DNA from: an uncultured Paludibacter sp.
GTDB lineage: Bacteria > Bacteroidota > Bacteroidia > Bacteroidales > Paludibacteraceae
Assembly (NCBI GenBank): GCA_963677275.1
Contig: OY781920.1
Coordinates: 1,009,960-1,073,959 of the forward strand
Length of the DNA stretch: 64,000 nucleotides
Reading direction: 5' to 3'
In this document: positions 6,085-18,185 of the stretch, piece after piece
How the letters are laid out: the number at the start of each line of letters is the position of its first letter
Position numbering within the stretch: the stretch's first letter is position 1
Program-made: the position numbers and the translations under genes
The notes under the pieces: generated by a model
Seen by the model: only the letters and a program-made list of their open reading frames with translations
Told to the model about the DNA's origin: nothing
Database searches by the model: none

Positions 6085-7374
6085 ATGAAAGAGTTTAAAA
6101 TTGCAGTAATTGGCTTAGGTTATGTAGGTTTACCATTGGCCATCGAGTTTGGTAAAAAGTATAAAGTACTTGGCTTCGATATCAATCAAAAAAGGGTTGA
6201 AGAGCTGCAAAACGGTTTTGATCATACGCTCGAAGCCGATTTGGAGGGTATGAATGAAGCCATTAACATTCGTAAAACCCATCCCGATCTGGGTCTGTCC
6301 TTCTCCTCCGACGCATCTGATTTGATAAATTATAACACTTATATAGTTACCGTTCCCACGCCTATCAATAACTTCAATATGCCCGACTTGCGACCCCTTA
6401 TAAAAGCTTCGCAAATGCTTGGCCGCGTAGTGAAAAAGGATGATATAGTTATTTATGAATCCACTACCTATCCCGGCTGTACCGAAGAAGACTGCGTTCC
6501 ACAGATAGAAAAAACATCAGGATTGAAATTTAACGTTGATTTCTTTGCAGGCTATAGCCCTGAACGTATCAATCCCGGCGACAAAGTAAACACCCTGACA
6601 AAAATTAAAAAGGTTACTTCCGGATCAACACCCGAAGTTGCCGATATTGTAAACGATCTTTATGCCTCCATCATTACCGCTGGAACACACAAAGCGCCCT
6701 GCATAAAAGTGGCCGAAGCTTCTAAAATTATCGAAAATGCCCAACGCGATGTCAATATCTCTTTTGTTAATGAATTGGCGCTGATTTTCGACAAAGTAGG
6801 CATCGATACCAACGATGTACTCGATGCTGCCGGCACTAAATGGAATTTTCTGAAATATCGTCCGGGACTTGTTGGTGGACATTGTATCAGTGTCGATCCC
6901 TATTATCTGGCCAGCAAGGCAGAGTCACTCGGTTACGTTCCGCAGGTGATCCTTTCGGGGCGCCATGTGAACAACAGCATTGCACCTTTTATAGCCAACA
7001 AAGTACTGAAACTAATGATTCAGAAGGGACAAACGATCAAAGGAGCCAATGTACTGATCCTCGGTGTAACTTTTAAAGAAAATTGCCCCGACATCAGGAA
7101 CACCAAAGTCATCGATATTTACAACGAATTCTGCGAGTTTGGAACTAAGGTTGATATCTACGATCCCTGGGCCATAGCCGAAGAAGTGAAACACGAATAT
7201 GGAGTGGACATTATCAACGAACTTGATGAAAATAAAAAGTACCAGGCTGTTTTACTTGCTGTTGCCCACGACGAATTTCAAACTTTTGATTTCGAAAAAC
7301 ACTTCTCATCCGGTGCCGTAGTATTCGATGCCAAAGCGGTGGTGGACAGACAGTGGGTGGACGGAAGATTGTAG
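6085..7374 (+). CDS. UDP-N-acetylhexosamine 6-dehydrogenase (TviB/WbpO/WecC family)
   Basis: IAVIGLGYVGLPLA, YESTTYPG, YSPERINPG and GGHCISVDPYYL motifs. Confidence 0.92.
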   Translation: MKEFKIAVIGLGYVGLPLAIEFGKKYKVLGFDINQKRVEELQNGFDHTLEADLEGMNEAINIRKTHPDLGLSFSSDASDLINYNTYIVTVPTPINNFNMPDLRPLIKASQMLGRVVKKDDIVIYESTTYPGCTEEDCVPQIEKTSGLKFNVDFFAGYSPERINPGDKVNTLTKIKKVTSGSTPEVADIVNDLYASIITAGTHKAPCIKVAEASKIIENAQRDVNISFVNELALIFDKVGIDTNDVLDAAGTKWNFLKYRPGLVGGHCISVDPYYLASKAESLGYVPQVILSGRHVNNSIAPFIANKVLKLMIQKGQTIKGANVLILGVTFKENCPDIRNTKVIDIYNEFCEFGTKVDIYDPWAIAEEVKHEYGVDIINELDENKKYQAVLLAVAHDEFQTFDFEKHFSSGAVVFDAKAVVDRQWVDGRL

Positions 7375-7528
7375 GGAAGTGAGACAATATATTAATATAT
7401 ATTAGTTTTAGTATTTAAGCATTAAAACACTATTCGATTGTTTAGATATTTATTCAGATTTCCCAATTATTCATTTTAATATAAATTTCATTGACTTCGT
7501 TTTTTGAGACTGATTGAAAGGTCTATTG

Positions 7529-7536
7529 TACCTTTG
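7529..7536 (+). promoter_or_regulatory. sigma-A promoter for the wzy-wzx cassette
   Basis: TACCTTTG with TTTG at 7503-7506. Confidence 0.55.
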
Positions 7537-7578
7537 TGAGGCGAGGAAAAGTGCTGTTTTATTCGAAAAAATATACTA

Positions 7579-8850
7579 ATGTTTCAACTAATTCTAATTT
7601 TATTTTTTTCTATTTTTATTTTAATTGCTATAAATAAAAGAGATTTTTTTGAACCGGCAAAGTTATTTACAATTATTTGGATTGCACAAATGATATTGGT
7701 AAAAATACTTTTCTATGAAACATACGAATTTAGTGGGTTCAATTTCTTTTATTTATTTGCAGCCGTAACAGTAGTGTTAATTGGGTCAATGCTTGGTCAG
7801 AAATTCAATTTTTCTAACAGAATTAACACTAATAATACCTATGAATTAAATATTTCCAAAGCAAACAGATTGTTTTATTTGATATTGATATTGTCGTTAA
7901 TTTACCCATTTGTAAAAATTAGTCAATACGGATTTGGAGTAGAATTTATCCTGAATTTAAATTCTTTACTCGAAATGAATAATGTGATTGCAAATGAAAG
8001 ATACACCGGAGGTGAAATCAATACAATATTCGATCAGATTTTGTTAGTGTTTTTATATTTAGCGCCATTGTATGGTGGATATTTACAAACATTTGCTTTA
8101 AAGAGAAAATGGATTTATTATTTAGTATTACTGCCTCCCTTATTTGTGGCAATCTCTCAGTCTATGAAAGCCGGTTTTATTTCCAGTGTATTTATGTTTT
8201 TAGCAAGTAGAATTATTTCATTCAAGCTTCATACAGGTGAATTTCCAAAAATAACATTAAAAGGAGTTGGTAAAACTGCATTTGCATTTGCATTGTTTTT
8301 GGGAATTTTATTTTTTTCCATGTTGCTGAGGACGGATGGTATAGATGCTGAAAATGTCAGATCAATAGGTTATCGCTTTGTGAATTATGCTTTGGGGCAT
8401 ATGGTTGCCTTTGATGAATGGTTAACTAATTTATATGATCCTAATACTCCGTTTGAATTAAAAACCTTTTATGGAATTTCAAATGTTTTAGGAATAGGAG
8501 AGAGAATGCAGGGTGTTTTCGATGATTTTATTGATTATAGTAATGCAAGCTTTCCGGATGAGATGGTGACAAATGTTTTTTCGGTTTTTCGATCTTTAAT
8601 TGAAGATTTTGGGGTATTAGGAAGTTTATTTTTTTTGGTTATTTTTGGTTACTTGTCAGGTGTTTCTTATAAAGCATTGTTAGAGAAGCCGATGATGTCA
8701 TGTTTTAATACGGTGTTTATCATATCGATATATATATTTATTTTTTATTCATTTATTACTTCCTTTTGGTCATATACGAGTTATATTGCTGCTTTCTTCT
8801 TGTTTTATATAGTGTTGAGAATGATTCATAGTAGAGTTGCATTTGAATAA
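7579..8850 (+). CDS. wzy: O-antigen/polysaccharide polymerase (Wzy)
   Basis: 423-aa polytopic membrane protein with two soluble loops, NVFSVFRSLIEDFG segment, AT-rich, inside a polysaccharide cluster. Confidence 0.72.
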   Translation: MFQLILILFFSIFILIAINKRDFFEPAKLFTIIWIAQMILVKILFYETYEFSGFNFFYLFAAVTVVLIGSMLGQKFNFSNRINTNNTYELNISKANRLFYLILILSLIYPFVKISQYGFGVEFILNLNSLLEMNNVIANERYTGGEINTIFDQILLVFLYLAPLYGGYLQTFALKRKWIYYLVLLPPLFVAISQSMKAGFISSVFMFLASRIISFKLHTGEFPKITLKGVGKTAFAFALFLGILFFSMLLRTDGIDAENVRSIGYRFVNYALGHMVAFDEWLTNLYDPNTPFELKTFYGISNVLGIGERMQGVFDDFIDYSNASFPDEMVTNVFSVFRSLIEDFGVLGSLFFLVIFGYLSGVSYKALLEKPMMSCFNTVFIISIYIFIFYSFITSFWSYTSYIAAFFLFYIVLRMIHSRVAFE

Positions 8851-8862
8851 TCGAGGAAGTTA

Positions 8863-10167
8863 ATGAATTTGCTGAATTTTAAATCGAAGCTTGGAAAAGA
8901 TGTAGCCGTAACATTTATAGCTCAGGCCTTTATTATGGTTACATTTTTCATTGTAAATAAGGTACTTAGTAATACTTTTGGAGTTGAAATGTATGGACAA
9001 TATAGTTTGATTAAGAAAAATAGTGCCGTTATATCAATGGTAATGCTTGCTGGTATGGGGATTGCTATACCACGTTTTGTAGCTTATTATAAAGCAAAAG
9101 CCAATCCAACGAAAGCTAACAGTATTATCGTTTCCTCTCTTATTATTGTATTTCTAATATCTTTCCTCACAATTATTTTAGCTCTTTTGTTCAGTGATCA
9201 GTTAGAGAATCTTATTATTGGTGTAAAAGGAGATTTGAAACTTTATTATGTCACACTTATTTACTCACTTTCGATCTGTATTAGTGCATTTATGTATTCT
9301 TTTTATCGAGGTATTGGCGATTTTTTAAAGTTTAATACTACACAAATTGTGATACAGATTTTGATATTAATGAGTTGTCTTTTTGTAAATAAACACTTGC
9401 TTGACGTGTTGTTGTGGTGGAGTTTACTAACCATAGTAGCAACAATCATAATTGTTTACAAAGACTTTGCACGTATTTTTAAGGAAGTCCGTAAGCAGAT
9501 AAGAAAAGCAGATTTAAAAGACTCAATAAATGAATTGTTGCCATTTGGAATTACAAGATTATTTGGCGATTTTATTTTATTTTCATTCAATGCCTTGCCA
9601 TTAATTTTTTCAAACTCGGAGTTTGGTATAAGGCAAACAGCTTTTTTTTCGGTAGGTGTTATGATAACCAATATGATCACCCCTCTGTTTGGATTTCTAG
9701 GTATGGTTTTACTACCTTATGTAAGTGAGCAGCTTGCAGAGGAGAATCATCGAAAGATAAACTCTTCTGTTAATCGACTTATGTGGATATATATAGTTTT
9801 GTCTGTTGTGTTAACTGTAATTGTTGTTCTCTTTTCTGAGTTTGTTATTCAAATGCTGTTTAGTACCGAATATCTAGAATCTAGTGCTATAGTACGTGTA
9901 CTAATTTGGACAATTGTTGCTCAAGCAGTATATTTGCTGTTAAGAAATCCAATTGATGCTGTAAGTAAATTTCCATTAAACACAATTAATTTGAGTTTGA
10001 GTTTTATTGTAATGTTTTTTTTGTTTTATAATTCAGGGAGTATTACACAATTAGGGTATTCATATTTAATTTCAAATATTGTTTTAGCCTTGCTTTCAGT
10101 TATTTCATGGTATTTTGTCTATCCAAAATTTCTTTCAAAAAAAATCAATCCAAATAAGTTCTGTTAA
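8863..10167 (+). CDS. wzx: polysaccharide flippase (Wzx)
   Basis: About 12 hydrophobic segments; YGQYSL...GMGIAIPRFVA pattern. Confidence 0.8.
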   Translation: MNLLNFKSKLGKDVAVTFIAQAFIMVTFFIVNKVLSNTFGVEMYGQYSLIKKNSAVISMVMLAGMGIAIPRFVAYYKAKANPTKANSIIVSSLIIVFLISFLTIILALLFSDQLENLIIGVKGDLKLYYVTLIYSLSICISAFMYSFYRGIGDFLKFNTTQIVIQILILMSCLFVNKHLLDVLLWWSLLTIVATIIIVYKDFARIFKEVRKQIRKADLKDSINELLPFGITRLFGDFILFSFNALPLIFSNSEFGIRQTAFFSVGVMITNMITPLFGFLGMVLLPYVSEQLAEENHRKINSSVNRLMWIYIVLSVVLTVIVVLFSEFVIQMLFSTEYLESSAIVRVLIWTIVAQAVYLLLRNPIDAVSKFPLNTINLSLSFIVMFFLFYNSGSITQLGYSYLISNIVLALLSVISWYFVYPKFLSKKINPNKFC

Positions 10168-10171
10168 ATAT

Positions 10172-10996
10172 ATGGTGTTGACAAAAAAAAATGCTTTTGT
10201 TCATGTAAATTACAACAATTCGTTGCTGACAATTGATTGTGTGCGTTCCATTCTTACCAATTGTAATCAGGCAGATATCATTATTGTTGACAATGATTCG
10301 AATCAGAGCGAAAAAGATTTGCTTGTAAATTATATTGATAGTCAAAATACAAATCAAATAAAGTGTATATTTGAAAATAGGAACCTCGGTTATTTCGGTG
10401 CATTAAATGTAGGAATTGGACAAATAATCAATAGTGCTAATGAGTATGATTTTGTAATAATTGGTAATAACGACTTGGAGTTTCAGGCAGATTTTTTTGA
10501 TAGATTGTCAAAAATCAAGGTTCAGGATGATATATTTGTACTTGCTCCCAATATTATAAAACCTAATGGTATTCATCAAAACCCCTATTGCATTGATAGG
10601 GTTTCAAAAACTCGGAAGTTTTTATACCGAATAATATATTCTTCATACAGCGTTGCTCAATTTGTATTTTGGTTGACTAATATATTAAAGGTAGCTAAGT
10701 CGGAAATGAGTAGATCAGGACATGAAGTGTCGCAATATATTTATGCAGGTCATGGTTCATGTTATATATTGACATCAGGTTTTTTTAAGTATAATAAGCT
10801 GCTAGTAAATCTAACTTTTCTAATGGGCGAGGAGTTTGTTCTGGCTAATCAGGTAAAGAATACACACGGTAAAATATATTATGACGCAGATTTGAGAGTG
10901 CTTCACAATGAACATTCTAGCATGGGAAAAATTCCAAGTAAGAAGGTTTATGAGTTTAATAGAAATGCGTATAATATCGTGAAAAACTATTTTTGA
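10172..10996 (+). CDS. GT2 glycosyltransferase (probable start 10172)
   Basis: VHVNYNN, IIIVDNDS, NLGYFGALNVG, GNND and HNEH motifs. Confidence 0.85.
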   Translation: MVLTKKNAFVHVNYNNSLLTIDCVRSILTNCNQADIIIVDNDSNQSEKDLLVNYIDSQNTNQIKCIFENRNLGYFGALNVGIGQIINSANEYDFVIIGNNDLEFQADFFDRLSKIKVQDDIFVLAPNIIKPNGIHQNPYCIDRVSKTRKFLYRIIYSSYSVAQFVFWLTNILKVAKSEMSRSGHEVSQYIYAGHGSCYILTSGFFKYNKLLVNLTFLMGEEFVLANQVKNTHGKIYYDADLRVLHNEHSSMGKIPSKKVYEFNRNAYNIVKNYF

Positions 10997-11008
10997 AAAC
11001 ATTTAACT

Positions 11009-12031
11009 ATGATGTTGAAATTTGTAACAGTAATTTGCCCTGTATATAACGAAGGAAAGTTTATTGAAAAATGTTTTAATTCGATATTGAAACAAGATTA
11101 TCCACACGATAAGATCGAACTTTTTTTTGTAGATGGAAGAAGTTCAGATAATACGAGGGAGATTATAGAAAATTTAAGTAAAGAGTACGGGTTTGTGAAA
11201 TTTCTCGATAATCCGTTTAAAGTAGTACCTCATGCACTTAACATAGGTATTGAACAGTCAAAAGGGGAAGTGATAATCCGCATTGATGGACATTGTGAGT
11301 ATCCTCAGAATTATATCTCTACTTTGGTGAGGTTTTTATATGAATTGGAAGCGGATAATGTGGGGGCTCTTGTCAATACTTTATCTGTGGATCATAAAGC
11401 TAAAAGTAAAGCTATAGCTTGTGCAATAAGTCATTGGTTTGGTGTTGGTAACTCATATTTTAGAATTGGAATTAACAATGTCCGGGAAGTTGATACAGTA
11501 CCTTTTGGTTGTTTTAAGCGAGAGGTCTTTGATAAAATTGGATTATTCGATGAAGATTTAGTCAGAAATCAGGATGATGAGTTTAATGCACGAATTATTA
11601 ACAATGGAGGTCGGATATTTATTATTCCTGAATTAGTTATCGATTATCATGCCCGCGATACAATCGGAAATGTATTTAAGATGTATTTTCAGTATGGCTT
11701 ATTTAAACCTTTAGTGAATAAGAAACTTGGAAAGCCTGCTACAATCAGACAGTTTGTCCCTGTATTTTTTGTGTTCACACTTTTAAACGGAATACTACTG
11801 TCGTTTTTTTTCAATATATTTTTTGTACTTTTGTTATTGTTTTTGTCTGTTTATCTTATTGTTTCATTATTTGTTTCTTTAAACCTTGCTGTTCAAAATA
11901 AGCATGTTGGTTTATTGTTGTATTTGCCTTTGATTTTTTTTGTTATACACTTTAGTTATGGTTTTGGTTATTTCAAAGGGTTGTATAATTTAGTGTTTAA
12001 AAAGAAATTTGTTGTTGATATTACAAGATAA
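11009..12031 (+). CDS. GT2 glycosyltransferase (ExoA-like)
   Basis: ICPVYNE, VDGRSSD, IRIDGH, TVPFGCF and RNQDDEFNAR motifs. Confidence 0.88.
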   Translation: MMLKFVTVICPVYNEGKFIEKCFNSILKQDYPHDKIELFFVDGRSSDNTREIIENLSKEYGFVKFLDNPFKVVPHALNIGIEQSKGEVIIRIDGHCEYPQNYISTLVRFLYELEADNVGALVNTLSVDHKAKSKAIACAISHWFGVGNSYFRIGINNVREVDTVPFGCFKREVFDKIGLFDEDLVRNQDDEFNARIINNGGRIFIIPELVIDYHARDTIGNVFKMYFQYGLFKPLVNKKLGKPATIRQFVPVFFVFTLLNGILLSFFFNIFFVLLLLFLSVYLIVSLFVSLNLAVQNKHVGLLLYLPLIFFVIHFSYGFGYFKGLYNLVFKKKFVVDITR

Positions 12032-12041
12032 TTTAATAAAT

Positions 12042-13250
12042 ATGAAAATCCCATTTTCTCCACCTTTTATAGACGAAGATGTTATTGATGAAGTTGTTGA
12101 TGCGCTGAAATCGGGTTGGATCACTACCGGTCCTAAAGTAAAGGCTTTAGAAGACGAAATTGCTAAATTCACAGGGGCTAAGTCAGTTTTATGTGTTAAC
12201 TCGTGGACGTCGGGTGCTATTATGATGCTTACATGGTTAGGTGTAAAAGAGGGTGACGAAGTTATAATTCCGGCATACACATATGCTGCTACTGCTTTAG
12301 CAGTAATACATGCAGGAGCAAAGCCTGTTATGGTAGATATAAACGATGACTTCAATATATCAGTTGCTGAAATTGCTAAATCAATAACATCAAAAACAAA
12401 AGCTATAATTCCTGTAGATATAGCAGGTTGGCCTTGCGATTACAAGCAAATAATGACTTTAGTGAGTTCGCCTGAGATTGTAAAACAATTTAGACCAAAC
12501 TCTGAGGTACAGAGTAAGCTTGGGAGAATCTTAGTGTTAAGCGATGCAGCACATTCGTTAGGTGCCAGATATTGTAACAAGAATATTGGTACAGAATGTG
12601 ATGTAACAATATTTTCGCTTCATGCAGTAAAAAACGTAACAACAGCCGAAGGAGGAGCTATTTGTTTAAATCTTCCAAATAGCTTTGTTAACAAAGAACT
12701 GTATGATGATTTGAGAAGAATGACTCTTAATTGTCAGACCAAAGATGCATTTTCGAAAAGTAAAGCAGGAGGTTGGCGATATGATATTATTGGTTTAGGC
12801 ATGAAAATTAATATGGCGGATGTAAATGCAGCCATAGGATTAGCGCAAATGAGGAAGTATACAGAGTTACTTACTAAAAGAAAAAAAATCGCTGGTCTTT
12901 ATCGTTCAGCGTTTTCAAAATATGATTGGGTAATTTTACCGCCACATACAAATGAAAACAAAGAATCTTCCTGTCATCTTTTTGCATTAAGAATAAAGGG
13001 TTTCTCGGAGAACCAACGGGACAATATCATTCAAAGAATTTCAGAAGCTGAGATTGCGATAAATGTTCATTTTATTCCATTGCCGATGTTGAGTTATTTT
13101 AAAGAACTTGGGTACGAAATAGATAATTACCCAAAGTCATACAATAATTATTCAAATGAGATTTCATTGCCGATTTATCCACAGTTAACTGTTGAGGAAG
13201 TTGACTATATTGTTGCTACCGTAGTTAATGCTTACTACTCAACTAAATAG
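12042..13250 (+). CDS. DegT/DnrJ/EryC1/StrS sugar aminotransferase, WcfR-like (start 12042)
   Basis: MKIPFSPP...SGWITTGPK, DAAHSLG and FSLHAVKNVTTAEGG (PLP Lys) motifs. Closely resembles B. fragilis WcfR as I recall it. Confidence 0.9.
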   Translation: MKIPFSPPFIDEDVIDEVVDALKSGWITTGPKVKALEDEIAKFTGAKSVLCVNSWTSGAIMMLTWLGVKEGDEVIIPAYTYAATALAVIHAGAKPVMVDINDDFNISVAEIAKSITSKTKAIIPVDIAGWPCDYKQIMTLVSSPEIVKQFRPNSEVQSKLGRILVLSDAAHSLGARYCNKNIGTECDVTIFSLHAVKNVTTAEGGAICLNLPNSFVNKELYDDLRRMTLNCQTKDAFSKSKAGGWRYDIIGLGMKINMADVNAAIGLAQMRKYTELLTKRKKIAGLYRSAFSKYDWVILPPHTNENKESSCHLFALRIKGFSENQRDNIIQRISEAEIAINVHFIPLPMLSYFKELGYEIDNYPKSYNNYSNEISLPIYPQLTVEEVDYIVATVVNAYYSTK

Positions 13251-13252
13251 AT

Positions 13253-13840
13253 ATGATTCGATTTTTTGATATCCTTTTTTCATTGATAGGTTTGTTGTTG
13301 TTACTCCCATTTTTAATTGTTGTTTATCTTTTGATAATAATTGAGAGTCCCGGAGGCGGATTTTATCGTCAGATTAGGGTAGGGAAAGATGAAAAAGATT
13401 TTAGGCTGTATAAATTCCGCAGCATGCGAGAAGGGTCAGACAAGAAAAGTCTTATTACAATTGGTAACAGAGATAGCAGAATGACCCGTATAGGATATTT
13501 TATTCGTAAGTTTAAAATTGATGAATTGCCGCAATTATTTAACGTTCTAGTAGGTGATATGAGTTTGGTAGGACCACGTCCTGAAGTGAGAAAGTACGTG
13601 AAATTATATAATCAGAATCAAAAAAAAGTTCTCTCTGTACGACCCGGAATTACTGATTATGCATCCATCGAATATGTGGATGAAAATAAACTTTTAGGAG
13701 AATCAGATAACCCTGAAAAATTATATATTGAACAAATAATGCCACATAAAATAGAGCTTAATATGAAGTATATAAATGATATAGGAATTAAAAACTACTT
13801 TAAAATTATTATTATTACTGGTACTAAAATATTTTCTTAG
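13253..13840 (+). CDS. initiating phosphoglycosyl transferase (WcfS/PglC-like)
   Basis: [28 protein letters not shown] and RPGITD motifs; single N-terminal membrane segment. Confidence 0.9.
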
Positions 13841-13942
13841 ACACATTTACAATTTTATGAAAGTCTTATTGTAATCTGGGTAAAATTTTAGTGTAATATT
13901 TGTATTTTTCTCACTAGAATAAATTACCAAAAAATATCACAA

Positions 13943-14448
13943 ATGGCCAAAAAAGTATTTGTCAGTGGTTGTTACGATATGCTTCACAGTGGGCATATGA
14001 CTTTTTTTGAGGAGGCTACAGCTTATGGCGATTTAAATTTGGGGAGAGGGTCGAACAGGACAATTGATGAAGTGAAAGCGCGCAAAACTATTAATTCGGA
14101 TGCAGAGCGTCTGTATATGGTCAGTGTGCTGATGGTAAAGGATATTGCAAATTTAATTCCATTAGTTGCTTGTAAAAGAAGGGTATATAACATATGCGAT
14201 TCGCATCATCTTAGTTTTAATGAATTGGAGAAATTAATTTGTGAACAATTGAATAAATCGAATGTAATTTCTATACCATTGTATTTTGCAAAACTACTTG
14301 CTAAAGTGGGTGATATACTTGGAAAATATGCACCAATAAATTCGGATAAATTGTCCAAAACTACAAATTCACATATTTTTAGCAAAGTAAAGGCTAAAAA
14401 AAATTAGGTTGGGAATCAATAGATGTTGTTAAAAACTTCAGAATTTGA
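13943..14448 (+). pseudogene. chimeric pseudogene: cytidylyltransferase N-terminus fused to NAD-dependent epimerase C-terminus, frameshifted in a poly-A tract
   Basis: aa 1-60 contain VFVSGCYDMLHSGH (HxGH). From about aa 61 the sequence is VLMVKDIANL...VYNICD...PINSDKL. An A8 tract at 14396-14403 gives a stop; A9 would read KKKLGWESIDVVKNFRI*. Confidence 0.75.
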
Positions 14449-14456
14449 TACCTTTG
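14449..14456 (+). promoter_or_regulatory. sigma-A promoter for the dehydratase gene
   Basis: TACCTTTG with TTG at 14426-14428 (20-nt spacer). Confidence 0.5.
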
Positions 14457-14475
14457 TATTTCAAACTAAATTAAC

Positions 14476-16395
14476 ATGGAAAAATTTAAAGACAAATTAC
14501 GATATTTTTTTAAGAATCTTCTAAACATCTCGATGAAAAATCGGTATATTATACTAGAGGCTGATATAATACTTGGAATATTTTCATTTATAGCGGCAAT
14601 CATCATTCACAATGAACTACTGAATGTTGAATATAATTACAAGGATATTTTAACCCTTGGAGTTGTATACATGCTGATTAGTATTACTTTCTTTATTTTA
14701 CTAAAATCAAATCGGGGTTTAGTTCGCCATTCTGGTTTTTTAGAGTTTTGGCGGCTTTATGTATCGCTGTTCTTAGCAATTGTATCCTTGTATGTTTTTA
14801 TGCTTATTAGCGGCTTTGAAATGCTGCATCGCTACTTCTTCAGCCAAAACTTATTTCTTATAAACTTATTTTTGTTGTTATTTGCTCGGTTTGGTGTTGT
14901 GGTAGTTTATAATTTTAGTATAAGTTATAATTTAAAAGTAGCTAAAAACACCCTGATTTATTCCACCAATTCGCATAGCGTGGCACTTATGCAATGGCTA
15001 AATAAAACAATTTCAATGCAATATCATGTAGTTGGCTTTATAACCAGAGAAAAAATTTCGTATAAATCAAGAATTCAGGAATTGCCTGTTTATAACTTAG
15101 ATGAATCAGAACTGCCTTATAAAGTTTTCAGAAAACATAACATCAGCACAATCATTTTCCCTGACTATAAAAGTTTAAATATGGAGCAGGATTATATTGC
15201 CAAATTTATTGAAATGGGATTAAATGTATTGGTAAGCCCTCCTTTCGAGGGGCTGGATATAAATAACAAGATTCGTTTTCAAATGAAACCTATTCAGTTT
15301 GAAGATTTATTGGGTCGCGATGAAATAAAAATTGACATGGAGAATATTGGTGCCCATACGAATGATAAAGTAATTCTTATAACTGGTGGAGCTGGATCGA
15401 TAGGCAGTGAGTTGGTTCGTCAGCTAACTATATTTAAACCAAAATTGATTGTTATATTTGATATTGTTGAAACACCTTTACATAATTTACATCTGGAACT
15501 TGTTAAGAATTTTCCGGAATTTCAATTTAAGGCTGTAATTGGCGATGTTCGCAATAAAGATCGTTTGGAGTATGTATTCCAAAAGTACAAACCACAAATT
15601 ATTTACCATGCCGCTGCTTACAAACATGTTCCGTTAATGGAAGAAAATCCCTGTGAGGCCATCCTCACCAATGTTGAAGGCACCATAAATTTATCGAAAA
15701 TTGCTGTGAAGTATAATGCTGAAAGATTTGTGATGATTTCCACTGATAAAGCTGTTAATCCCACCAATGTAATGGGTGCATCAAAACGCATTGCTGAAAT
15801 TTATATTCAATCATTTGCATATAAGTTAAAAAAACAAGGGAATATAATAAATTTTGTAACAACTCGATTTGGTAATGTTTTAGGCTCAAATGGTTCTGTA
15901 ATACCTTTTTTCAAAGAACAGATTGAAAAAGGAGGACCGGTTACAGTAACTCATCCCGAAATAATTCGTTATTTTATGACTATCCCCGAAGCCTGCAGAT
16001 TGGTTATGGAAGCTGCGTCTTTTGGACAGACCGGTGAGATCTATGTCTTTGATATGGGTTCACCTGTGAAAATTGCCGATTTAGCACGTCGAATGATTGA
16101 GTTGGCTGGTTTTATACCAGACAAAGACATTATGATACAATATGTAGGTTTGCGTCAGGGAGAAAAACTGTATGAAGAATTACTCAACGACAATGAAAAT
16201 ACCTTGCCCACTAAACACGAAAAAATTACAATTGCCAAGGTGAGACAATACGATTACGAACAAGTGATAGCTTCGATTAAGCCTTTACTAGAAAATTCAA
16301 TCAAAGTTGATATTGATACTACTGTAAAGATTATGAAGAAAATAGTTCCTGAATTTATAAGTCAGAATTCACCCTTCGAGTCACTTGACAATTAA
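14476..16395 (+). CDS. UDP-GlcNAc 4,6-dehydratase (PglF/CapD/UngD family)
   Basis: N-terminal membrane segments; EDLLGR, ITGGAGSIGSE, HAAAYKHVP, STDKAVNP and RFGNVLGS motifs. Confidence 0.93.
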   Translation: MEKFKDKLRYFFKNLLNISMKNRYIILEADIILGIFSFIAAIIIHNELLNVEYNYKDILTLGVVYMLISITFFILLKSNRGLVRHSGFLEFWRLYVSLFLAIVSLYVFMLISGFEMLHRYFFSQNLFLINLFLLLFARFGVVVVYNFSISYNLKVAKNTLIYSTNSHSVALMQWLNKTISMQYHVVGFITREKISYKSRIQELPVYNLDESELPYKVFRKHNISTIIFPDYKSLNMEQDYIAKFIEMGLNVLVSPPFEGLDINNKIRFQMKPIQFEDLLGRDEIKIDMENIGAHTNDKVILITGGAGSIGSELVRQLTIFKPKLIVIFDIVETPLHNLHLELVKNFPEFQFKAVIGDVRNKDRLEYVFQKYKPQIIYHAAAYKHVPLMEENPCEAILTNVEGTINLSKIAVKYNAERFVMISTDKAVNPTNVMGASKRIAEIYIQSFAYKLKKQGNIINFVTTRFGNVLGSNGSVIPFFKEQIEKGGPVTVTHPEIIRYFMTIPEACRLVMEAASFGQTGEIYVFDMGSPVKIADLARRMIELAGFIPDKDIMIQYVGLRQGEKLYEELLNDNENTLPTKHEKITIAKVRQYDYEQVIASIKPLLENSIKVDIDTTVKIMKKIVPEFISQNSPFESLDN

Positions 16396-16852
16396 AACTT
16401 CAACCTAACGAAAGACATAAGGAAATTGTTATAAAATAATCATCGCACAAAAATGCTGAGAAAGCATGATATTGGAAAAGATTTTATATCCAAAACAAAA
16501 TAAAAATAATGTGAACATATCAGATATATGTTTTAAATAAGCAAATCAAACTCAATTTTTTATCTAATAACTATTTATATCCTGAAACTATTTTAAGCAA
16601 AAAAGTTTCAAGCATTTAATCTTCTACATATTTATCGTTGTAGCACTTTTTGTGTTCGAAATACTTAATTTCAGGGGGGCCAATAAATTTAATATTATTG
16701 ATAAACCAAATGAACGTAGTTCACACACACATTACTTTGAGAGGAGGTGGTGTGGTATTTTTCTCTTCATAAATTTTAAATGAACCATAGAAGGGTTTTT
16801 GCCTGTTTTAGCGCAGCGTTACCTACCCATACAACTTCTAAATACAATCCTC

Positions 16853-17245
16853 ATGCAACTAATAAACGAAGAATTACTGAACAGTGTGTCAGCCGAAGCT
16901 GCTGAAAACCTGCGTTTGCGAAAAAATTATAACATCCATACAAGTTTGGACGACAAGGTGCAAAGGCTTCTGAATGCGCTTGAACCGGGTACCGAATTAC
17001 CTGTACACCGGCACCGACACACGGATGAAACTTACCTTTTGTTGCGTGGAAGTTTGATCCTGAAGTTGTACAATGACACCAAAACACTCATCGACGAATA
17101 TGTATTAAACCCCGAAACAGGGAATTATGGCGCGTCTATCCCTGCCGGACAATGGCATACAATTGAAGTGCTTGAGAAGGGAACGGTTATTTTTGAGGTA
17201 AAAGAAGGTCCCTATGCCCCACTCTCGGACGAAGATATTTTGTAA
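16853..17245 (+). CDS. WbuC family cupin-fold metalloprotein (start 16853)
   Basis: LRKNYNIH...VQRLLNALEPGT...HRH...WHTIE...EVKEGPY motif pattern. Confidence 0.85.
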   Translation: MQLINEELLNSVSAEAAENLRLRKNYNIHTSLDDKVQRLLNALEPGTELPVHRHRHTDETYLLLRGSLILKLYNDTKTLIDEYVLNPETGNYGASIPAGQWHTIEVLEKGTVIFEVKEGPYAPLSDEDIL

Positions 17246-17984: not shown

Positions 17985-18185
17985 GTGTGAATATATCAAT
18001 TTGAAAATGTGTCAATTATTAATAAGTCTCTGGTCTACAGTCGCCGGTCTACAGGCTTTGTTGATCTGTTGAACTGTTGAATCGTTGAATAACTGAGTAA
18101 TTGTTGAATCGTTGAATTGTTGAACCGTCGAATTTTTCATTCTGCATCCCAAAACCCAAAACCCGAAACTCGGAACCCGAAACTT
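17985..18185. repeat. modular mosaic intergenic repeat, copy A
   Basis: Tandem GTTGAAT/C 7-8-mers, two GTCTACAG units, CCC(A/G)AAA heptamers and AATGTGTCAATT units. Confidence 0.8.

Follow-up and report, generated by a model that had tools for sequence, protein, structure and literature searches.

A probable AATGal-primed Wzx/Wzy glycan locus, with a 4-amine likely to be free, in an uncultured Paludibacter species

What kind of surface glycan is specified by the genes lying between positions 6085 and 17245 of the window—a 64,000-nucleotide stretch of DNA from an uncultured Paludibacter species, corresponding to C1:1009960–1073959 of a complete, single-contig genome of 3.56 Mb—and would that glycan carry charges of both signs? 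A preliminary description, made from the sequence of the window alone, saw here a candidate for a zwitterionic polysaccharide, in which AATGal (2-acetamido-4-amino-2,4,6-trideoxygalactose, or FucNAc4N) with a free amine, made by a module resembling WcfR, WcfS and UngD2, would be combined with at least one uronic acid supplied through a neighbouring UDP-HexNAc dehydrogenase. The genes that it listed are all present where it placed them, on the + strand, as is every long open reading frame (ORF) of this interval, and the peptides that it quoted, including NSWTSGAIMM and NCQTKDAFSKSKAGGWRYDI, all occur in the translations. The reading that we hold to be probable is of an AATGal-primed glycan locus of the Wzx/Wzy type, its 4-amine likely free, set between a housekeeping WbpA-like dehydrogenase and wbuC.

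In our model, a PglF-type dehydratase would convert UDP-GlcNAc to UDP-4-keto-6-deoxy-GlcNAc, from which a WcfR-type aminotransferase would make UDP-AATGal; a WcfS-type transferase would place AATGal-1-phosphate onto undecaprenyl phosphate; the glycosyltransferase gtB, which travels with this module, would add the second sugar and a further glycosyltransferase, gtA, the third; and the resulting trisaccharide would be flipped by Wzx and polymerised by Wzy, the 4-amine most likely staying free. The dehydrogenase would provide UDP-GlcNAcA (the uronic acid form of UDP-GlcNAc) to a distant WbpB/WbpE/WbpD trio, and may feed gtA or gtB as well. Each enzymatic step, the sequence in which the transferases act and the state of charge are predicted here from what can be observed directly: gene identities, synteny, conservation, base composition and the scars left by lost genes.

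The probable AATGal-initiating module

The DegT-family aminotransferase (12042–13250) is 70% identical over 399 amino acids (603 bits) to P0121, the Bacteroides hominis copy of a B. fragilis-group wcfR product (locus L011), which belongs to an 892-member cluster, built at 90% identity, that contains B. fragilis proteins; both of the ‘general wcfR’ primers published by Arnolds et al. fit the gene for P0121 perfectly (0 mismatches), enclosing an amplicon of 275 bp. Its ORF is open from 12009, but translation most likely starts at the ATG at 12042, the resulting MKIPFSPP start being common to all homologues. When set against solved structures, the protein scores 347 bits, end to end, with Spr1654 (PDB: 6EWJ), 176 with ArnB, and 70 and 67 with the PglE structures 1O61 and 4ZTC. 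We judged the grouping into WcfR-type or PglE-type by these bit scores, and the gap between 603 and 347 on the one side and 70 on the other made a tree unnecessary; the comparison that the preliminary description had called for sides with WcfR/Spr1654, and the likeness to a WcfR/WcfS/UngD2 module that it proposed holds. Assignment of the gene product as a WcfR-type UDP-4-keto-6-deoxy-GlcNAc 4-aminotransferase, that is, a putative UDP-AATGal synthase, is well supported.

Directly downstream, and separated from the aminotransferase gene by only 2 nt, is a gene for a small, monotopic phosphoglycosyl transferase of the WcfS type, the predicted initiating enzyme, with 195 amino acids and a single domain (13253–13840; PF02397, Bac_transf, 185 bits over residues 3–194), 70% identical over 189 amino acids to P0136, a protein found on >1000 B. 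fragilis contigs; its score with PglC is only 97 bits. We compared the locus with 80 others, drawn from genomes whose aminotransferase homologues are 65–82% identical to that of the window, and in nearly all of them a small transferase lies directly 3′ of the aminotransferase. Adjacency to a wcfS-type gene, as seen here, is also the property by which a published genomic screen recognised such loci. Two members of the set (L044 and L060, 70% and 69% identical), both of B. cellulosilyticus DSM 14838, match the two wcfR orthologues reported for that strain (PMC10167101). Two others, from B. intestinalis (L043 and L049), have 70%-identical wcfR homologues with 1–2 mismatches to the primers; a strain of B. 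intestinalis served as the wcfR-negative control of Arnolds et al., and the discrepancy presumably reflects strain variation.

The third member of the module, at 14476–16395, is a membrane-anchored UDP-GlcNAc 4,6-dehydratase of the PglF/WbpM/UngD2 type, with an N-terminal membrane region followed by an SDR domain (PF02719, Polysacc_synt_2, 395 bits over residues 300–588), a score of 272 bits with the PglF structure 5BJU, and no second copy in the genome. Homologues within the genus are mostly only 45–50% identical to it, the exceptions being the nearest relative, G001 (93%), and genomes G009 and G013 (61–62%), and we therefore count this gene (G+C fraction 0.33) as part of the island.

Published work on related enzymes fits this assignment. 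PglF, WcfR and WcfS together are enough for the formation of bactoprenyl-diphosphate-linked AATGal in Escherichia coli (PMC13063421), UDP-FucNAc4N is used by WcfS-type transferases (PMC11626204), and for Spr1654 a role as UDP-AATGal aminotransferase in teichoic-acid synthesis has been predicted, its substrate having been modelled (PMC5936713). The galacto configuration of the product, with an axial amine at C4, would follow from the 70% identity to enzymes with known products (PMC13063421, PMC11626204, PMC3989065). Stereochemistry cannot be read from sequence, and transferases of the FucNAc4N type also accept UDP-bacillosamine, to a lesser extent (PMC11626204), so a gluco-configured 4-amine made by a Pgl-like module has to be considered; as the B. 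fragilis-group WcfR type reaches 603 bits and Spr1654 347, whereas PglE stops at 70 and 67, and as the genome has no PglD, we regard it as highly improbable. The complete N,N′-diacetylbacillosamine (diNAcBac) pathway of Campylobacter and Neisseria was rejected as a match: the best score genome-wide for the PglD/NeuD family (TIGR03570) is 60 bits against a cut-off of 160.8, and PglE reaches 70 bits.

It is thus very probable, from the likeness of these enzymes, that the repeat unit begins with AATGal, as in polysaccharide A (PSA) of B. fragilis. The two systems share the order of aminotransferase and transferase, the 70% identity of each, Wzx/Wzy assembly, and a family 2 glycosyltransferase (GT2) directly upstream, in the position that WcfQ holds in the PSA initiation series (UngD2/PglF, WcfR, WcfS, then WcfQ). 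They differ in that the locus of the window includes its dehydratase gene, whereas in B. fragilis ungD2 lies elsewhere (PMC13063421); in that the upstream GT2 of the window is of another, membrane-anchored subfamily (approximately 33% identical over 103 amino acids); in that only two further transferases are present; and in that the window locus has no UpxY/UpxZ, invertible promoter, pyruvyl transferase or Galf genes. A closer match in gene order is provided by the group 1 lipopolysaccharide O-antigen of Haemophilus parainfluenzae (T3T1 PARA_02760/02750/02740, and strain 20), where aminotransferase, WcfS-type transferase and dehydratase follow each other as they do here, at 69–70%, 69–71% and only 34–42% identity, respectively. 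FucNAc4N is confirmed as the first sugar of that O-unit, which in strain 20 is a trisaccharide, assembled in a Wzy-dependent manner (PMC3989065); the host, however, is a gammaproteobacterium, the polymer passes to lipopolysaccharide through a linked ligase, and the negative charge in strain 20 is that of a phosphodiester. Streptococcus pneumoniae, with its teichoic-acid AATGal pathway and serotype 1 capsule, supplies the best solved-structure match for the aminotransferase in Spr1654, but is a Gram-positive host whose product is a ribitol-phosphate teichoic acid.

Chain extension, export and the state of the 4-amine

The gene immediately 5′ of the aminotransferase, gtB (11009–12031), encodes a GT2 with C-terminal membrane helices (PF00535, 96 bits; best PDB match 6YV7, 51 bits). 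In 16 of the 80 loci a homologue with 47–57% identity occupies the same position, directly 5′ of the aminotransferase, and in one additional locus (L040) a homologue lies 4.3 kb upstream; overall, about one-fifth of loci pair gtB with WcfR/WcfS, in hosts from across the Bacteroidota and, in one case, in a Bacillota genome. This distribution suggests that gtB is co-inherited with the AATGal module and is likely to act as the second-step transferase on undecaprenyl-diphosphate-linked AATGal (Und-PP-AATGal). Its neighbour gtA (10172–10996) is a divergent GT2, open from a TTG at 10115 though most likely started by the ATG at 10172, and its company is less constant: in L120 a GT4 gene takes its place, and L121 has only a 31%-identical gtA-like gene that does not adjoin gtB. 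On this comparison gtA is best counted among the variable genes on the outer side of the cassette.

Upstream of gtA are the genes for the Wzx flippase (8863–10167; matches to Polysacc_synt and MatE) and the Wzy repeat-unit polymerase (7579–8850; TIGR04370, 105 bits; G+C 0.29), 52% and 51% identical, respectively, to their counterparts in the syntenic locus L081. The locus is an ordinary one for its kind: hypervariable, shuffled by recombination and specifying a surface glycan of either O-antigen or capsule type, the export and ligation genes lying elsewhere in the genome. As a separate observation, both L081 (6263–8833) and L109 (11167–13560) encode, adjoining the dehydrogenase, a large Wza-type exporter of approximately 850 amino acids with four SLBB domains; the large Wza of L081 has no homologue in the genome of the window.

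Several points weigh against the reading just given. The match of gtA to the GT2 family is weak (PF00535, 31.6 bits for a cut-off of 23.3) and it finds no counterpart among PDB sequences; likeness to WcfR was measured against P0121 of the B. fragilis group, standing in for the WcfR of NCTC 9343; the locus contains no Wza/Wzc, Wzz or ligase gene, the Wza/Wzc pairs and two Wzy_C proteins of this genome being far away; and the syntenic L081 keeps the dehydrogenase nearby, as would also be expected if that enzyme fed the locus rather than a distant pathway.

Whether the first sugar would bring a positive charge depends on its 4-amine. As the preliminary description had noted, the cluster holds no acetyltransferase: no ORF within 6085–17245 matches such a family. 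Nor did the genome search that it proposed find a PglD-type enzyme above the cut-off; the eight sub-threshold matches to TIGR03570 are WbpD/WlbB-like, frames of LpxA/LpxD size, gamma-carbonic-anhydrase-like, or a CysE-like fragment. A further source of acetylation became apparent among the 80 loci, 15 of which have a GNAT-family gene for a protein of approximately 200 amino acids directly 5′ of the aminotransferase. These include L009, the closest locus of all (82%; GNAT at 9393–9998), L067 (3980–4576), L060 of B. cellulosilyticus DSM 14838 and L043 of B. intestinalis. In the window locus it is gtB that holds this position, and the genome contains nothing homologous to the partner GNAT. Since neither locus nor genome contains a partner acetyltransferase, the 4-amine would most likely remain free.

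The amine could nonetheless be acylated by an enzyme encoded elsewhere, leaving the glycan neutral or anionic. The FucNAc4N amine of the Fusobacterium nucleatum O-antigen is 60% acetylated (PMC8048906), a GNAT adjoins the aminotransferase in the 15 related loci, and acyltransferases are present in other glycan loci of this genome, for instance the GNAT-fusion protein encoded at C1:2006691–2008079. We nevertheless think this unlikely: besides the missing partner GNAT and the fact that no NeuD/PglD protein passes the cut-off, the top-scoring enzymes of the hexapeptide kind are the LpxA/LpxD, carbonic-anhydrase-like and CysE-like frames and a WlbB/WbpD-like acetyltransferase, which scores 229 bits with 3MQG, an enzyme specific for a 3-amino uronate. 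For the record, the GNAT-fusion gene (462 amino acids) belongs to another glycan locus, C1:2006691–2016933, which also contains a DegT aminotransferase, a WbqC-like protein and several GT2 genes.

The dehydrogenase and the question of an acidic sugar

The first gene of the locus (6085–7374) encodes a TviB/WbpA-like UDP-HexNAc 6-dehydrogenase (NF011729, 527 bits for a cut-off of 592; TIGR03026, 376 bits), which the preliminary description took as evidence for a uronic acid in the repeat unit. This half of the proposal is weak. A low-G+C island (0.29–0.36, for a genome mean of 0.39) extends from wzy to the dehydratase only, and the dehydrogenase, at 0.43, lies outside it; a 205-nt gap, with a pattern match at 7503–7536 to a candidate Bacteroidetes-type promoter (TTTG-N22-TACCTTTG), parts it from wzy. 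It is 83–86% identical in at least eight genomes of the same genus, in seven of which none of wzy, wzx, gtA, gtB, the aminotransferase gene and the transferase gene is matched in the adjoining cassette.

The likely destination of its product lies 250 kb away, where a row of three genes (C1:1274994–1277859) encodes homologues of WbpE, WlbB/WbpD and WlbA/WbpB, with scores of 321, 229 and 177 bits, respectively. This trio is conserved across the order but has no WbpA of its own, and the genome contains no second WbpA-like gene, so that the dehydrogenase of the locus is the sole candidate. Among 31 relatives, 29 have a WbpD homologue, and in six genomes, five of them from other genera (G020, G022, G023, G024 and G027) and one from the same genus (G015), a dehydrogenase homologue lies within approximately 2.2 kb of wbpD. 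In Porphyromonas gingivalis, scattered Wbp genes, with that for the WbpA homologue UgdA among them, produce a sugar required for A-LPS and for anchoring type IX secretion system (T9SS) cargo (PMC4031482). The same pairing of scattered genes with a T9SS is seen in the window genome, which encodes 53 proteins with T9SS C-terminal sorting domains; the likeness to the WbpA–WbpB–WbpE–WbpD pathway, known also from Pseudomonas aeruginosa, is confined within the locus to the dehydrogenase. This enzyme is most likely a genus-wide housekeeping WbpA, with predicted GlcNAc specificity, forming the conserved border of a locus that otherwise varies; and because it stands outside the island, is conserved beside other cassettes and is linked to wbpD elsewhere, it does not point specifically to a uronate in the repeat.

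It may all the same provide the acidic half of a zwitterion, which is possible if gtA or gtB draws on its product. A true zwitterion of this kind would combine free-amine AATGal with at least one HexNAcA or Wbp-derived diacetamido-uronate, made by way of the dehydrogenase and added by gtA/gtB. The dehydrogenase adjoins the locus both here and in the syntenic L081, exactly two glycosyltransferases are on hand, no acetyltransferase was found, and the genome can make UDP-GlcNAcA and, through the trio, UDP-GlcNAc3NAcA. There is also a solved precedent in the O-antigen of F. nucleatum ATCC 51191, ->4)-b-D-GlcNAcA-(1->4)-b-D-GlcNAc3NAlaA-(1->3)-a-D-FucNAc4NR-(1-> (PMC8048906), a trisaccharide of AATGal, a HexNAc-uronate and a 3-amino-uronate, a set that the window genome could itself supply from the dehydrogenase and the WbpB/WbpE/WbpD trio. 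That structure, however, was solved chemically whereas ours is predicted; the likeness is one of sugar set, not gene by gene; and in F. nucleatum the AATGal amine is partly acetylated and the 3-amine carries alanine. Against a zwitterion, too, are the position of the dehydrogenase outside the compositional island and its retention beside unrelated cassettes, its ties in other genera to wbpD and not to AATGal genes, the 16 other loci that have a gtB orthologue but, within 10 kb, no dehydrogenase of this kind (which may lie elsewhere in the genome), and the lack, among the family matches in the locus, of any other acid-making gene such as a pyruvyl or phospho-transferase. On balance we treat the zwitterion as a serious possibility, though not the one that we favour.

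More speculative still is an extension of it, in which a T9SS-bearing, probably non-gut member of the Bacteroidales would complete an AATGal trisaccharide with GlcNAcA and/or GlcNAc3NAcA to give a zwitterionic O-antigen-type polymer, its WbpA supply being held in common with the anchor of T9SS cargo, and in which gtB would represent a widespread and so far undescribed family of transferases devoted to the second step, on Und-PP-AATGal.

Edges, scars and significance of the locus

To return to the reading that we prefer, an AATGal-primed locus with conserved edges, the 3′ boundary is formed by a WbuC-family cupin gene (16799–17245; TIGR04366, 144 bits), a feature that the preliminary description had passed over. 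With its native composition (G+C 0.44), wbuC marks the end of the locus, and in the nearest relative, G001, it is 98% identical and lies beside an identical methylase gene. The contig of G001 stops after methylase, wbuC and the 93%-identical dehydratase, and the rest of the cassette is absent from that assembly (91% complete), as is the dehydrogenase. In the window, genes on the opposite strand flank the locus on both sides: those for a NUDIX hydrolase and for a CAAX protease upstream, and that for the DNA methylase at the 3′ side, just past which are short tandem repeats of the GTTGAA(T/C) type (18064–18133). A search for an invertible promoter or other sign of phase variation returned only low-complexity, AT-rich inverted repeats; a phase-variable capsule locus of the Bacteroides type was ruled out, as the upstream genes are not UpxY/UpxZ and there is no invertible promoter with flanking repeats.

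Two scars, likewise absent from the preliminary description, record how the present arrangement arose. The first, between transferase and dehydratase (13943–14448, including a 154-amino-acid ORF at 13943–14407), is a chimera of two gene fragments. Its codons 1–65 derive from the N-terminus of a cytidylyltransferase/GHMP-kinase gene, this part being 75% identical over 68 amino acids to an intact 377-amino-acid copy elsewhere in the same genome (C1:1913706–1914836); the gene is also found intact 3′ of the transferase in L067 (6451–7584). The remainder comes from the C-terminal end of an NAD-dependent epimerase/reductase, 48–52% identical to the epimerase of the same-genus locus L115 and frameshifted at an A-run near 14398, where the alternative frame reads KKLGWESIDVVKNFRI*. 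In the metagenome contig L122 the scar ORF is split further. We note in passing that a fusion of cytidylyltransferase-like and GHMP-kinase-like domains follows the WcfS-type transferase in some loci, where it may activate a sugar-1-phosphate. The second scar lies in the gap between dehydratase and wbuC (16396–16798), where tblastx against L115, L061 and L075 recovers, in two frames, what is left of the N-terminus of an initiating transferase of the WbpL/WecA type (PF00953), now frameshifted (16619–16763; translation NIIDKPNERSSHT / HITLRGGG).

In L115 the epimerase and the PF00953 gene are both intact, and neighbours. Because remnants of both survive in the window, we conclude that the AATGal module replaced, by recombination, an older initiation module consisting of an epimerase/reductase and WbpL (QuiNAc/FucNAc type). 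Metagenome contigs preserve the series gtB–aminotransferase–transferase–scar–dehydratase at 95–99.7% nucleotide identity while carrying other genes 5′ of gtB, with a breakpoint near 10902.

The same scars, and the lack of export or ligase genes of its own, might be taken to mean that the locus is a decaying and non-functional remnant of recombination. We find this very hard to credit: all eight core genes are intact, the frames of the module are also intact in several metagenomes, and comparison with the metagenome variants indicates purifying selection, with a dN/dS of 0.11 in the aminotransferase gene and of 0.27 in gtB.

What we have, then, is a Wzx/Wzy glycan locus that is real, intact and ordinary, whose product would be started with AATGal by a WcfR/WcfS/PglF-type set of enzymes, and such loci are common. 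The suggestion of a possibly new glycan was overstated, given the solved F. nucleatum structure with AATGal, GlcNAcA and a 3-amino-uronate (PMC8048906) and the presence of wcfR-marked loci in hundreds of genomes (PMC10167101); that of a ‘non-Bacteroides host’ is right as to the genus, though the organism still belongs to the Bacteroidales. Should the polymer prove zwitterionic, an already long list of predicted producers of AATGal polysaccharides would grow by one organism, a modest gain.

The locus is perhaps more instructive about its family. With a GNAT adjoining the aminotransferase in 15 of 80 loci, the wcfR/wcfS pair by itself is no predictor of a zwitterion, and wcfR may overcall zwitterionic polysaccharides; a UDP-HexNAc dehydrogenase next to a Bacteroidales locus of this kind can be a housekeeping WbpA and not specific to the locus; and the scars provide a clean example of serotype change, in which the initiating module was swapped while the common 4,6-dehydratase step was kept.

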